Virus record (IMG/VR): IMGVR_UViG_3300037453_000171
Location: 35,881-99,880 of that record
Origin: a virus
Taxonomy: Duplodnaviria; Caudoviricetes
Reading direction: 5' to 3' (one strand)
Length of the DNA stretch: 64,000 bases
A program made the position numbers and the translations under genes. A model generated the notes under the pieces. It was not told the DNA's origin. It worked only from the letters and a program-made list of their open reading frames with translations, and did not search any database. Shown here piece after piece: positions 10,141 to 49,828 of the stretch; the first letter of the stretch is position 1; every line of letters starts with the position of its first letter.

Positions 10141-10304
10141 AAGACATTGATCTCTGTCCAGGAACAAACTGTCCGCTTGCATCTACCTGCCTTCGCGCTA
10201 TCTGGTATGACGAACACGACAAGAACTTGCCGTATAGATGGGAGATAGATCCGCCGGAAAAACCTTGTAAGTTATTTATTGCCAGAGAATACTATGGCGG
10301 ATGA
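10137..10304 (+). CDS. Small Cys-rich protein
   Basis: MKDIDLCPGTNCPLASTCLR...C; ATG at 10137. Confidence 0.6.
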   Translation: MKDIDLCPGTNCPLASTCLRAIWYDEHDKNLPYRWEIDPPEKPCKLFIAREYYGG

Positions 10305-10725
10305 CATCCTACAGGAAGCATTGGCTTTACCTCCGAACAGAAGGGCTAACCTGATCGCGGAGATAAGAAACAGTATCGAACAGGAACGGATTCAGCGGTA
10401 TGAAACGGTAAAATCTATCGTTGAATCTGTTGTCTGCCATAAGATAACCGACAGCAGGAAGCGAATGAATGTACGGTGCAGGATGTTCATCTGCTATATA
10501 ATGCGGAAAGACGGATACACGCTCGAGGAAATCGGGAAACTGATGAAGAAGAATCATGTAACCGTTCTGTACAGCATAAGAAGAATGGAAGATATGCTGT
10601 CGTTGCCAAGATTATATAAGGAGGAAATCGAACAACTAAAACAAATAGAAGAACTGGTCTATGAAACTGAAATTCAAGAAACTGACGCCGGATGCGGTGA
10701 TGCCGATGAAGGCGCATCCGAGTGA
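10294..10725 (+). CDS. DnaA C-terminal (domain IV) HTH-like protein
   Basis: SRKRMNVRCRMFICYIMRKDGYTLEEIGKLMKKNHVTVLYSIRR resembles the DnaA domain IV signature. Confidence 0.7.
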   Translation: MADDILQEALALPPNRRANLIAEIRNSIEQERIQRYETVKSIVESVVCHKITDSRKRMNVRCRMFICYIMRKDGYTLEEIGKLMKKNHVTVLYSIRRMEDMLSLPRLYKEEIEQLKQIEELVYETEIQETDAGCGDADEGASE

Positions 10726-11089
10726 TGCCGGATTTGATTTGACGGCAGTATCTGTTGAGGAGGACAGGAAACGGAATATCGTTACCTACCATACGGGTAT
10801 TTCCGTATCGTTGCCCGAAGGATACTTCGGTCTGCTTTGCCCTCGTTCAAGCGTATATAAGCATCAGCTCCAACTGGCGAACGGATTAGGAATCATCGAC
10901 CAAGGTTATCACGGAGAGTTGATCTTCAAGTATCGTATCGTTCAGCCACACATCAGCAGGTATCCGGTAGGAGAAAGGGTGGGACAATTGGTTGTCGTTC
11001 CTTACCCGGAATTGGAACTGGAAGAAGTGGATGAATTTGAAGATTCCGACAGGGGTACCGGAGGATTCGGATCTTCTGATAACAAGTAG
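10661..11089 (+). CDS. dut: Trimeric dUTPase
   Basis: Motifs AGFDL, PRSS, GIIDQGYHG, ERVGQL, RGTGGFGSS. Confidence 0.95.
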   Translation: MKLKFKKLTPDAVMPMKAHPSDAGFDLTAVSVEEDRKRNIVTYHTGISVSLPEGYFGLLCPRSSVYKHQLQLANGLGIIDQGYHGELIFKYRIVQPHISRYPVGERVGQLVVVPYPELELEEVDEFEDSDRGTGGFGSSDNK

Positions 11090-12306
11090 TCTATTACTCT
11101 GCGATTAGCGACATCCACGGCTTCCTGATTAAACTTGACATAAATGAGAGTGGTCCTGTTGCCTGACGAATGGCCCAGTGCCTGCGAGATAACATCGAGG
11201 GAGATGCCTACTTCATAAGCAAAGGTAGCCCAGCAATGACGAGCATAGTATGTGGAGATTTCCGGGATGACCGGCGTAATGGTTTTTAACAGTCGTGGTG
11301 TACCAAATAAATCCTCCGGATCTGGAACCATCTCCCATCTTACGTCTCCTATCTCCTTCAGCTTGTCGTTCATCTCGTGTACGAAATTCTTGTAGTGCTT
11401 GCAATGGTCCATTGCCTCCAGCAGATACCGCTCTCCTCTGTATTTTTTCAGCAGTTCCTCAGCCTCCGGTTCAATCTTGATTGAATATTTCTTATGTGTC
11501 TTCTCCCGGATATATTCGAGCCTACCATTAACAATTCGTTTCTCACTAGCCAACAACAGGTCTTTCGAGTTTATTCCGATGAGATAGAACATGAGGAGGA
11601 AATAGTCGCGATACCTGCATAGATTTGCTGGTGCCGGATGGTTGAGGAACTTCCTGAAGATTTCTATGGACACGGACCGTTTCTTCGTCGGTTCATGCTT
11701 GATCGAGAAGTTCTCGAACGGATATGTCGATACGGCTCCGGTGTGTTTTGCGTAATTGCACACAGCCCGGAGACTGCGGAGATAGATGGCCCTTCCGTTT
11801 ACCCCCTGGGTCCTCGCCAGAAACCTTTCAAACTGATGCAACCATTTAAGATTTATGTCTTCCATCTTCAGCGTCTTGCCTCCGAACGCAAGAACCTTCG
11901 AGAGCGTAGTCCTGTAGATTTCTTTCGTTCCTTCCTTGATATCCCGGACAAGATATTCCGTAAACATATCTGATACGAGATGAACTGGCTTGACAACTTT
12001 CTTTTCCGCTATCGCCTGCTTGATTTGCGGAGCAGTCATAGAATCGAATCTATCCGATCTATCAGGATCTATTGATAGATACGCAATAGATCGATCGACA
12101 GAAGATTTCTTCTCCGCAAGCCTTGCGTTCAAGGCGTCGGAACCAGGAACGCCCTTGATATGATTGCCATCCCATTCATTCGGAGCCACACGGATACCGG
12201 TAGGAATCATAGCCGTTGTCCGGTTATGATAGATGGTGATGACGATGCTGCCTTTCCCGTCTTTCGCTCTACCGCGAAGATCCAGGTAAAACCTTGTTGT
12301 TGCCAT
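11002..12306 (-). CDS. int: Tyrosine integrase (Bacteroidota arm-binding + SAM-like + catalytic domains)
   Basis: N-terminal arm domain MATTRFYLD...IPTGIRVAPNEWD; YIREKT; YYARHCWAT; ISQALGH; TTLIY catalytic Tyr; start at 12306 lies downstream of a TAnnTTTG promoter. Confidence 0.92.
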   Translation of the reverse strand: MATTRFYLDLRGRAKDGKGSIVITIYHNRTTAMIPTGIRVAPNEWDGNHIKGVPGSDALNARLAEKKSSVDRSIAYLSIDPDRSDRFDSMTAPQIKQAIAEKKVVKPVHLVSDMFTEYLVRDIKEGTKEIYRTTLSKVLAFGGKTLKMEDINLKWLHQFERFLARTQGVNGRAIYLRSLRAVCNYAKHTGAVSTYPFENFSIKHEPTKKRSVSIEIFRKFLNHPAPANLCRYRDYFLLMFYLIGINSKDLLLASEKRIVNGRLEYIREKTHKKYSIKIEPEAEELLKKYRGERYLLEAMDHCKHYKNFVHEMNDKLKEIGDVRWEMVPDPEDLFGTPRLLKTITPVIPEISTYYARHCWATFAYEVGISLDVISQALGHSSGNRTTLIYVKFNQEAVDVANRRVIDYLLSEDPNPPVPLSESSNSSTSSSSNSG

Positions 12307-12322
12307 GTTGAAGTATTTACTA

Positions 12323-12330
12323 CAAATATA
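12323..12330 (-). promoter_or_regulatory. -7 promoter element for the integrase (TATATTTG)
   Basis: caaatata on the + strand, just upstream of the int ATG. Confidence 0.6.
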
Positions 12331-12336
12331 TGAATT

Positions 12337-12358
12337 TGTCTGCATACGATTCCGCATA
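12337..12358 (+). repeat. Putative integrase arm-type sites (left pair)
   Basis: TGTCTGCATA 12337-12346 and ATTCCGCATA 12349-12358, 12-bp period. Confidence 0.55.
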
Positions 12359-12466
12359 GCGAATTATAGATGTAGAATAGCGATTTTAAAGGCAAAAACA
12401 AAAAGGCTTCAAAAATCCTTGCGGGAGATTGAAGCCAATCAATTGAAAATTAAAGAGTTACTTATG

Positions 12467-12512
12467 TGGAGATAAGGGGATTCGAACCCCTGACCCCCTG
12501 CTTGCAAAGCAG
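12467..12512 (-). mobile_element. attP core: 3' half of tRNA-Ala(UGC)
   Basis: Reverse complement CTGCTTTGCAAGCAGGGGGTCAGGGGTTCGAATCCCCTTATCTCCA = anticodon arm (UGC), T arm, acceptor strand; no D arm or 5' half; adjacent to int. Confidence 0.88.
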
Positions 12513-12554
12513 TAGATTTCTCCGCTTAATCACATGACAGTCACATAAATAGAT

Positions 12555-12794
12555 ATGAAAGAAAATAATTCTGCAAATGATTCTGCAAAAATGCAGCAAG
12601 AGTTTTATACCGAAGCGCCAAAATGGAAGTGGCAGATTTTAGATTGGGAGAGAGCTAAAGAAGGGAAAATTCAGGTCATCGATGTTAATAATACTCCGCT
12701 TCTTGAAATAAAACTGAGCGATATACCAAAGCACATGAGCGTTGTCGTTTGGCTGACTATTCTGATAAATACTGGAATTATACTTAAACAATGA
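12555..12794 (+). CDS. Hypothetical protein adjacent to attP
   Basis: 79-aa ORF; ATGA overlap with the next gene. Confidence 0.5.
   Translation: MKENNSANDSAKMQQEFYTEAPKWKWQILDWERAKEGKIQVIDVNNTPLLEIKLSDIPKHMSVVVWLTILINTGIILKQ
12568..12589 (+). repeat. Putative integrase arm-type sites (right pair)
   Basis: ATTCTGCAAA twice (12568-12577, 12580-12589), 12-bp period, same orientation as the left pair. Confidence 0.6.
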
Positions 12795-13261
12795 ACTACG
12801 ACTTAACCAACAAGGAGAACAGACTTCGGTTTATCCGTCGATGTAACTTCCTGCTGAAGAACCAGCGGAACAATGTTTCGTTGGTGGATGAATCGAACCG
12901 AACCCTTAACCAGAACAGTTATATCCATGTATTGTGCAGAGTGCTTGCACAGGACATCGGTGTAACTGAACGGTACGCCAAGCAGGTTTATTTCAAGGAA
13001 CTGGCTAATCCGGATGTGTTCGTCACCGTTACGAAAGATCCGCTTACCGGAGATATGATGAAAGTAATCCGAAGCACCTGCGATCTTACCATCCAGGAAA
13101 TGCGTAATGCCATTGATGGGTTCATCAAATGGGCGGCGGATAATGGTTACGATTTACCGGAGGCAAACATTAATGATGACGGCACGATGGAGTTTGCATC
13201 TGAAGAAGATCGGCAGAAATTCCATCAAGCAGAAATTGAAACAAGTAAAGTTGAACTATGA
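12791..13261 (+). CDS. NinB/DUF1367-like recombination protein
   Basis: RTLNQNSYIHV...IRSTCDLTIQEMRNAID pattern. Confidence 0.65.
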   Translation: MNYDLTNKENRLRFIRRCNFLLKNQRNNVSLVDESNRTLNQNSYIHVLCRVLAQDIGVTERYAKQVYFKELANPDVFVTVTKDPLTGDMMKVIRSTCDLTIQEMRNAIDGFIKWAADNGYDLPEANINDDGTMEFASEEDRQKFHQAEIETSKVEL

Positions 13262-48295: not shown

Positions 48296-49828
48296 TTAAG
48301 CCTGAAGGATGGCGGGGATAAGGGAGATACACCGGGTCGGGTCGTAGATGACCAGACCGAGGGTAGCCTTGTAATGGACCACCGCGCTGTCTTCATCGTA
48401 GGAAGCGGAGCTGTTGTTGGTCTCGCCCGTGAACGGGTTGGAGAACGGACCCCACTGATAGCCACGCAGTTCGGGCATGCCCTTCACCGTGCACTTCTGG
48501 ACATTCGGCTGCTCCTCGTCGGCGGCATAGAAGATGTCGAACCGATAGGACTCGGCGGTACCACCCAGCGGGTGCATGATCTTGTTGGTCTGCATGTCAT
48601 CCTTGGAGGAATCGATCATGACGGTAACCTCAAGACCATTGGCGGAAAGCCAGCGGGTAACCTGGAAGTCGGCGATGGTAGCGGCGTTGCCGTTGGTGAA
48701 GTTGGTCTCCGGGCCCTTCGTCATGTAGGACGGAGTGGAAGCGGAATACAGAGGAATCCAGCCGGACATCTCCTTCTTGGCTTCCTTGCTGAACAGGATG
48801 GCGCCACGCTCACCGGTACGCAGGACGAACTTGCGCTTGTTGAAATCGAGCTTGCCAGCGGAGATACCGTAGAGGGCGTCCTCGACAAGACCGATGGTGA
48901 ACTTGTTGTAGTACATCATATTACCCTGAGCCTGCTGCTGGCGGAAACCGGCACCCTGCTCATTGGGCAGACCAGACAGACCGAAGTTGGAATACTCGCC
49001 GTTCTCCATCCGGGTGCTGACACCGCGGTCGAGGGCGTTGTTCTTGTACTCGCTCCAGGTCTCCTCGATCTTCCAGGTCACGTTGTAGATCCAGCGATCG
49101 ACGGTGGTGTGCTGGATCTTGCCGTTGACTTCCTTGGAAACGGGGATGCGGCAGCAGAGACGCTTGCCAAGCTCGCGACCACCGATCTTGTGCTGGATAC
49201 GGAGGCGGCTCCAACCCTGACGCATGGAAACGGGGGTGCTGAAACGGACGTCACCGACCTTGCGGGAGAAGTCCTTCTCGATAGGAGCATAGGCCCAGCT
49301 GAAACGCTCACCGGGGAGAAGGCGGTCCTTCGGGATACCACCGGCAAGGTGAGCACCGAACGGCTCGACGAGATACACGGTGTTGGTACCTTCGGCGTGA
49401 CCCATCTCCTTCACGATGACGGGATACTCTTCATTGAAATTGCCCCAGAGGACTTCGCCGAGAGCGAACCAGTCGACAGGGAAAACGAGATAGAACGGCT
49501 CGAAACCACGACCGATGTTGTGGTCGGTAGCAGCCGTGATCGGAGTGCCGTCGCACTCACGGGCCTCCACCAGAGGAATGTTCCGGCGGGAGGAGGACAC
49601 GACATCCCAGAACAGATCGGTATCATCTTCGTATTCACGGACGGGAACCTCACGGGAGAGGTAGGTGTCCAGAGTCGGAAGATGCATCTGGCTCATGAGG
49701 ACGGTCATGACATCGCTGGCCATCTGAGGGTTGGAACGGAAGATGTTATAAAGGTGGTTGTCCTTCGTAACGGTTCCTCTCCAAGCGGTGATGCCAACAT
49801 TAGTGGAATTGACTAAAGGTCCTGGCAT
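48296..49828 (-). CDS. Major capsid protein (crAss-like HK97 fold)
   Basis: 510 aa; FVLRTGERGA; HPLGGTAESYRF; YDPTRC; strongest codon bias; follows the acidic scaffold. Confidence 0.88.
   Translation of the reverse strand: MPGPLVNSTNVGITAWRGTVTKDNHLYNIFRSNPQMASDVMTVLMSQMHLPTLDTYLSREVPVREYEDDTDLFWDVVSSSRRNIPLVEARECDGTPITAATDHNIGRGFEPFYLVFPVDWFALGEVLWGNFNEEYPVIVKEMGHAEGTNTVYLVEPFGAHLAGGIPKDRLLPGERFSWAYAPIEKDFSRKVGDVRFSTPVSMRQGWSRLRIQHKIGGRELGKRLCCRIPVSKEVNGKIQHTTVDRWIYNVTWKIEETWSEYKNNALDRGVSTRMENGEYSNFGLSGLPNEQGAGFRQQQAQGNMMYYNKFTIGLVEDALYGISAGKLDFNKRKFVLRTGERGAILFSKEAKKEMSGWIPLYSASTPSYMTKGPETNFTNGNAATIADFQVTRWLSANGLEVTVMIDSSKDDMQTNKIMHPLGGTAESYRFDIFYAADEEQPNVQKCTVKGMPELRGYQWGPFSNPFTGETNNSSASYDEDSAVVHYKATLGLVIYDPTRCISLIPAILQA

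Follow-up and report, generated by a model that had tools for sequence, protein, structure and literature searches.

The window analysed here, a stretch of 64,000 nucleotides, is the terminal 64 kb of a 99,880-bp IMG/VR virus record (IMGVR_UViG_3300037453_000171). The record has a 127-bp terminal repeat and a CheckV completeness of 100%. The phage originates from cattle gut, and a bovine gut sequencing run, here called X1, is probably its source sample. Within the window, a tyrosine integrase gene (int) lies beside a Bacteroidota-type promoter and a 46-nt piece of a tRNA-Ala(UGC) gene, which is set between two pairs of 10-bp repeats (Table 1). Phage genes, a dUTPase gene and a NinB-like gene, flank this site, in agreement with a sequence-only reading of the window that had described it as the unintegrated form of a phage attachment site (attP). 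Together these elements probably make up a functional integration module of lambda style, carried by a crAss-like phage. Moreover, this branch of a phage order held to be non-integrating most likely forms true prophages, because relatives with the same module sit in Bacteroidales chromosomes.

Table 1. Positions of the int and attP features, their neighbours and the crAss-like virion genes in the window
Feature	Positions	Strand	Basis or remarks
Helix-turn-helix (HTH) protein, DnaA_C/HTH_38-like	10279..10725	+	conserved next to int in relatives
dUTPase	10661..11089	+	converges on int; 88-bp overlap with int 3′ end
Tyrosine integrase (int), 434 aa	11002..12306	-	Pfam, PHROGs, alignment with relatives
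-7 promoter element TATATTTG of int, Bacteroidota type	12323..12330	-	read from sequence; fits TAnnTTTG
P-arm repeat pair, TGTCTGCATA (12337-12346) and ATTCCGCATA (12349-12358)	12337..12358		int side; abuts int promoter; 12 bp apart
Variable P-arm spacer, arm repeats to core	12359..12466		diverges among relatives; core and arms conserved
attP core, 46 nt	12467..12512	-	tRNA-Ala(UGC) 3′ part, anticodon stem to discriminator base
P′-arm block	12519..12551		two TCACAT repeats; identical in window and phages L003 and L004; nearly so in other aligned tRNA-Ala phages
Small open reading frame (ORF), 79 aa, no assigned function	12555..12794	+	not conserved in L003 or L004
P′-arm repeat pair, ATTCTGCAAA twice (12568-12577, 12580-12589)	12568..12589		12 bp apart
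NinB-like recombination mediator	12791..13261	+	Pfam, PHROGs; conserved P′-side phage neighbour
Giant virion RNA polymerase-type ORF, 3656 aa	13530..24500	-	protein match
Major capsid protein, crAss type	48296..49828	-	protein matches; PHROG major head protein, E 4.7e-66

Carrier genome, integrase and attachment site

Judged by its protein matches, the carrier is a crAss-like phage (Crassvirales), which by BLAST similarity may belong to the Steigviridae or to a sister group. The major capsid protein matches 86 phage records, of which the named ones are crAss-like and the remainder are unnamed uncultured or unclassified records. Its best matches, at the level of BLAST similarity, are found in the Steigviridae (48-51% identity over 100% of the length). 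For the 3656-aa ORF, the matching genes are those annotated as RNA polymerase in crAss001-type phages, with 70% coverage at E 3e-91. Its counterpart in those phages consists of two separate adjacent genes, so the ORF in the window appears to be a fused form. The capsid gene and this ORF are in line with the earlier placement of a virion RNA polymerase (RNAP) and a crAss-type virion module in the same window.

The int ORF was called at 11002-12357; the start common to relatives is the ATG at 12306, which gives the 434-aa protein listed in Table 1. This is a complete tyrosine integrase, as had been proposed, and it has three domains. Pfam detects an arm-binding domain, Arm-DNA-bind_5 (PF17293, E 3.6e-7), and a SAM-like core-binding domain, Phage_int_SAM_5 (PF13102, E 4.6e-12), both over the cut-off, together with a Phage_integrase catalytic-domain match that is under threshold (23.4 bits versus a cut-off of 27.1). 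In PHROGs the protein is assigned to integrase phrog_1 (E 1.7e-25). When aligned with XerA (4a8e), residues K272, R356, H379 and Y389 fall on catalytic positions of the R-K-H-R-H/W-Y set. All four are invariant across 120 homologues, Y389 being present in each of the 117 sequences that reach that column.

The sequence TAnnTTTG is the -7 promoter consensus of Bacteroidota. The element TATATTTG that fits it sits 17 nt upstream of the int ATG and is nearly unchanged in the relatives aligned. The core stretch matches annotated tRNA-Ala genes of other phages at 88-89% and has a single occurrence in the genome; a complete tRNA is detected by ARAGORN neither in the window nor in the genome as a whole. 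The four 10-bp arm repeats around the core all have the same orientation. The pattern ATTCYGCAWA, which unites three of the four, has 4 matches in the 64 kb (0.81 expected), 3 of them at attP. The P′-arm repeats fall within the start of the small ORF here and are non-coding in relatives, and the same P-arm repeat pair is also found in relatives whose cores derive from tRNA-Lys and tRNA-Val. Hence the three elements that the sequence-only reading had claimed, namely a TAnnTTTG promoter belonging to int, a 46-bp tRNA-Ala(UGC) 3′ half and paired arm-like repeats on both sides of it, were all located, the repeats being conserved across the tRNA-Ala, tRNA-Lys and tRNA-Val lineages. The layout supports a POP′-type attP beside its own integrase in an unintegrated, complete crAss-like genome.

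Free and integrated relatives

A protein search recovered more than 120 integrase clusters at 56-87% identity, several of which lie on 93-103-kb contigs. At the same locus, two IMG/VR genomes, of 79 and 98.6 kb, have an integrase with 81% identity to that of the window. The gene order in all contexts examined is giant RNAP, NinB, att, int and early genes, on crAss-sized contigs. NinB is 56-77% identical in these relatives, and the pairwise divergence of int and that of NinB are in step (r = 0.61). This comparison shows that the module is conserved at the same locus, and vertically inherited, within a large crAss-like clade.

Alignments of the int-NinB spacer show that the core, the promoter and the four repeats are conserved and that the sequence between them diverges. 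In the tRNA-Ala phages the core is conserved exactly, in two T-stem alleles, while the integrases differ by 13-30% and the flanks have diverged. The alleles are independent of the phage backbone: the nearly identical phages L003 and L004 differ in their allele, and the window has the allele of L004, not that of L079, its closest integrase relative (87% identity). A third tRNA-Ala allele shows a compensated change in the anticodon stem. The cores of other lineages are the corresponding parts of tRNA-Pro(UGG), tRNA-Lys(CUU) and tRNA-Val(UAC), and the tRNA-Lys and tRNA-Val lineages retain the same arm repeats as the tRNA-Ala phages. Constant arms combined with a retargeted core are what an arm-binding integrase system predicts, and by this pattern of conservation the site appears to behave as a selected attP.

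The tRNA-Lys lineage is found both free and integrated. Its integrase, P0113, is 57% identical to that of the window and occurs in two contexts. In the attP contigs (L013, L015 and L016), phage genes lie on either side and there is no tRNA. In the contigs with the host-phage junction attL (L014, L017 and L018, from three other samples), a phosphatase gene is followed by tRNA-Lys(UUU), tRNA-Lys(CUU), int and phage early genes. From base 23 of tRNA-Lys(CUU) on, the attP and attL contigs do not differ; before that base they are unrelated, and the breakpoints lie exactly at the 52-bp core of this lineage. The attL contigs are 99.8-99.9% alike across the junction, and one of them comes from a k141 assembly, that is, longer than the 52-bp core. 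The phosphatase beside attL has 91% identity to a protein of a Bacteroidales metagenome-assembled genome (MAG). In a related strain the empty bacterial site (attB, L048) consists of the phosphatase gene, both tRNA-Lys genes, a terminator and a sugar dehydrogenase gene. The large protein of the tRNA-Lys phage matches crAss RNA polymerases only, and its NinB is 73% identical to that of the window. No contig with the opposite junction, attR, was found for this phage in a look-up that included its 146-aa P′-side ORF. These contigs show integration of the tRNA-Lys lineage at tRNA-Lys in a Bacteroidales host. In L013 the homologous RNAP gene is on the opposite strand relative to NinB.

A second integrated relative is found in G982, a 1.8-Mb reference genome from the same family as the Bacteroidales genome G007, with an integrase 55-56% identical to that of the window. 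Bases 1-52,215 of its contig C5 are collinear with the phage studied here (capsid 76%, terminase-like protein 71%, int 55%, early genes 40-63%), and after this phage part come a complete tRNA-Val(UAC) (attL) and 56 kb of ordinary bacterial genes. Contig C19 opens with 788 bp of host DNA up to a terminator, after which come the final 50 nt of the same tRNA-Val (attR), NinB and an uninterrupted 3649-aa RNAP ORF. The final 55 nt of C19 are the initial 55 nt of C5. When joined (C5:1-52215 and C19:839-21906), the prophage is about 73 kb long, with a 50-bp direct repeat at either end and all long ORFs uninterrupted, and it is apparently intact. A misjoin of a free phage and an empty site is unlikely, since the assembly contains both recombinant junctions and its overlap exceeds the repeat in length. 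With these two cases, relatives of the phage are integrated in Bacteroidales, which answers one objection foreseen in the sequence-only reading, that prophage relatives might be lacking.

The G982 prophage differs from the 100-kb phage in lacking a counterpart of window 51.0-59.8 kb, including a 2034-aa protein, and its RNAP gene is adjoined by a gene that lies far from the RNAP gene in the phage studied here. The same genome holds two more NinB-like copies, broken by in-frame TGA/TAG (G982:C25:367-702 and G982:C9:90858-91186; L068-L070), which may be what is left of other crAss-like elements or else genes that use a recoded genetic code.

Close relatives of the P0113 and G982 integrases are absent from IMG/VR. 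An integrase alignment of genome contigs, limited to two peptide patterns, gave a single match, at 38% identity. In this Bacteroidales MAG contig (L007) the integrase gene is directly downstream of tRNA-Arg(UCU), and it probably represents a further integrated element from the broader family of these integrases. The 99.8-kb record MT835494, which gave a 29% integrase match, was considered as a crAss-like relative and ruled out, having no crAss capsid gene.

Among the neighbouring genes, that of the HTH protein is a candidate for a regulator or directionality factor. The dUTPase gene is missing at this position in every relative whose int-distal neighbour was examined; for this reason it seems to have been inserted recently, with loss of the original stop codon of int. 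The end of the integrase is a Ser-rich tail that corresponds to an antisense reading of the dUTPase 3′ end, in the 88-bp convergent overlap (11002-11089).

Proposed mechanism and alternative explanations

The steps of integration are proposed from the anatomy of the module and from knowledge of the integrase class. Host RNA polymerase would transcribe int from its own Bacteroidota-type promoter. The N-terminal domain of the integrase would bind the four arm repeats, and the core-binding and catalytic domains would bind the 46-bp core, which the integrase would recombine with its identical counterpart in the 3′ part of a tRNA-Ala(UGC) gene of the host. Because the core is a tRNA 3′ fragment, integration would restore the tRNA: attL would contain a complete tRNA beside int, its 3′ part supplied by the phage, and attR would contain a 3′ tRNA fragment beside NinB. 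We infer from the integrated relatives and the module itself that this phage integrates, with arm binding and strand exchange as proposed. Excision and prophage maintenance would proceed via factors beyond those recognised.

Several observations weigh against this proposal. Neither attL nor attR turned up for this phage, or for any tRNA-Ala or tRNA-Pro relative, in 8 JGI contigs and all ENA/Logan contexts examined. As to the earlier claim that the phage can lysogenize a Bacteroidales host, integration has been seen in relatives (the tRNA-Lys lineage and G982), and for the phage itself neither junction was found. Lysogens are rare, the integrase being present in one of about 700 Bacteroidales reference genomes searched. 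The exact 46-mer core occurs in none of 401 Bacteroidales reference genomes. The comparison of the core with Bacteroidota genomes, a check suggested by the sequence-only reading, did not yield the exact host tRNA: in 401 Bacteroidota genomes the best match is 94%, and in the family that hosts the G982 prophage the matches are 84-90%. Those of the nearest tRNA-Ala(UGC) genes that were checked are located between 16S and 23S, where inserting 100 kb would be costly. Two canonical catalytic positions of the integrase deviate in the XerA alignment (N246 at Arg I and Y353 at His I), and its C-terminal Ser-rich extension of about 26 residues has no counterpart in relatives. Finally, neither in the larger ORFs of the window's early arm nor beside int in relatives did Pfam and PHROGs detect a repressor or excisionase; such proteins are small and poorly covered by these libraries.

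Some of these points can be set in context. N246 and Y353 are retained in 119 of the 120 homologues, and P0113, the integrase of a phage seen integrated, carries the same set of active-site residues, including the equivalents of N246 and Y353. R233, R262 and R267 are invariant in the 120 homologues, and could substitute for the canonical arginine. An attB in a repeated rRNA operon would break short-read assemblies and hide the junctions. Four Bacteroidota tRNA-Ala(UGC) genes among the closest to the core (92-94%; L049, L052, L053 and L055) all lie in spacers of the order 16S, tRNA-Ile, tRNA-Ala and 23S. Standalone copies of tRNA-Ala(UGC) also exist, for example in G007 (L019).

Searches with other parts of the module likewise returned free forms. 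The P-arm pattern was found in 8 contigs of the JGI metagenomes, all attP, and the contexts retrieved with six further integrases, with the NinB of the P0036 phage and with the 146-aa ORF of the tRNA-Lys phage were likewise all attP. A 24-nt P′-arm pattern had no match in genome contigs. The phage is strongly represented in run X1 only, with small shares in runs X2 and X3. No host-phage joint is listed among the Logan contigs of X1, which cannot reveal rare junctions and so provide no evidence either way. The phage contigs of X1 end within the core, where much deeper tRNA-Ala-like contigs overlap, and the host tRNA-Ala contigs part from the phage sequence at 12466 and 12512. One low-depth X1 contig (2.6x) joins 12458 to 13253 with 19 other letters between, skipping the core, the P′ arm, the small ORF and NinB, and may be a variant or a relative. 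Unlike the contigs of the source run, the Logan contig of L079 crosses the att core unbroken, which suggests that the L079 sample is without other core-sharing sequences.

The free forms and the deviations just described could also be those of a relic, in which int and attP were inherited from a temperate ancestor and are unused in the tRNA-Ala lineage or in this phage, the lifestyle being lytic or persistent. We consider this unlikely. It would be consistent with tRNA-Ala phages that are seen as attP forms only, with the failure to find the exact host tRNA in reference genomes or a repressor or excisionase, and with a C-terminal extension and a dUTPase insertion that reach the int 3′ end. However, the core is exact across phages whose integrases are 13-30% different and whose flanks have diverged, tRNA alleles are switched between near-identical phages, and the active-site and arm elements are retained; an attB in a repeated rRNA spacer would, moreover, conceal junctions from short-read assemblies. 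A recombinase could instead act on the phage's own genome, for circularisation or for multimer resolution of a plasmid-like form, with no chromosomal integration, a role exemplified by Cre-lox of P1. The prototypic crAssphage has been proposed to be a phage-plasmid without integration (PMC10983915), and only free forms are seen for the phage studied here. This explanation is nevertheless very improbable, given that a single-copy tRNA 3′ fragment, accompanied by arm repeats and an integrase of the arm-binding kind, is unlike a symmetric lox/dif-type site, and that relatives with the same module are integrated at matching tRNA genes.

There is hardly any likelihood that int and the tRNA fragment are a separate small integrative element inserted in the phage, or an assembly chimera, even though int is on the strand opposite to its neighbours and the adjoining dUTPase is lineage-specific. 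Such an origin is disfavoured because the gene order is shared, int has diverged in step with NinB, the module consists of int and att alone, and the core is present once, so that no repeat brackets an insert. The same arrangement is found at the same place in more than 12 independent assemblies, including k141 MEGAHIT contigs and a core-bridging Logan contig. Both a misassembly at 11.0-12.6 kb and an inserted element had been raised as possible objections in the sequence-only reading. The junction recurs in many independent assemblies, and conserved synteny, NinB-matched divergence and the single core speak against an insert. A functional lambda-style integration module thus remains the preferred and probable explanation of the stretch.

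Comparison with known systems and biological meaning

Heterobivalent tyrosine integrases of the lambda type use a POP′ attP and target the 3′ part of a tRNA gene. The module studied here is similar in its three-domain integrase with an arm-binding N-terminal domain, in the arm repeats on both sides of the core, and in an int gene that adjoins attP and ends beside an intact tRNA in attL. It differs in that its carrier is a crAss-like podophage of about 100 kb with a virion RNA polymerase, that no excisionase or CI-type repressor was recognised here, and that Arg I and His I are Asn and Tyr. The combination of Arm-DNA-bind_5 and Phage_int_SAM_5 is a domain set typical of Bacteroidota integrases and is shared with the IntDOT/NBU type, whose elements, in contrast, are conjugative or mobilizable and not phages. 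IntDOT, too, is not known to have the canonical first arginine at the usual position. Among 50,697 deposited phage records, the best integrase matches are temperate Bacteroides siphophages (BS-TP2 and Bacuni_F1/F2/F4; 34-38% identity over 94-95% of the length), which are distant, 30-58 kb in size and not crAss-like; no named crAss-like phage is among the integrase matches listed from these records.

Within the crAss-like phages, the Steigviridae (crAss001, DAC15/17 and Kolpuevirus) share with this phage a capsid protein that is 48-51% identical over its full length, homologous RNA polymerase genes, a genome of about 100 kb and opposed early and virion arms. Their cultured members, however, are said to be strictly lytic and to have no integration genes (PMC10136315), whereas this phage carries int and attP. 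A 2023 review regards crAss-like phages in general as seemingly strictly lytic and sees no support for true lysogeny in the evidence (PMC10136315). The prototypic crAssphage was found not to integrate, and the long gut persistence of crAss-like phages has been attributed to phase variation, carrier states or a plasmid-like life (PMC10983915). There are also hints to the contrary. Fujimoto 2020 is cited, in a passage of one paper (PMC8776839), for the detection of a temperate crAss-like phage. Epsilon-type crAss-like prophage fragments occur in Parabacteroides (PMC11054128), a pig-gut prophage catalogue has 12 crAss-like entries (PMC12454387), and a mouse catalogue lists integrase modules in Intestiviridae and Zeta and, rarely, in Steigviridae (PMC13503771). 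In contrast to the cases described here, the last three are catalogue-level annotations or incomplete prophages. In the literature searched, no description was found of the att-site anatomy of temperate crAss-like phages.

The mechanism of integration is therefore a conventional one in an unexpected carrier. A ruminant-gut clade of crAss-sized phages retains an integrase and a tRNA-matched attP, and members of two of its lineages are found integrated into Bacteroidales chromosomes, the junctions falling exactly at att. Dependence of early transcription on an injected RNA polymerase is known from phi14:2. It is a tentative possibility, somewhat short of an even chance, that integrative lysogeny occurs in an order that injects its RNA polymerase and that induction follows another route, with a tRNA-Ala lineage whose 100-kb insertion may come to lie between 16S and 23S in an rRNA operon. 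Another route would be needed because a prophage has no injected RNA polymerase. Host-polymerase promoters could first express the giant RNAP gene; alternatively, the early genes could have a second set of promoters. If true, a target in the rRNA operon would be biologically costly.

With attP, candidate attB sites, integrase genes and a lysogen genome now at hand as experimental material, the induction of an RNAP-injecting phage from a prophage becomes a directly testable question. In ecology and in phage selection, virulence should not be presumed for crAss-like genomes that bear an integrase.

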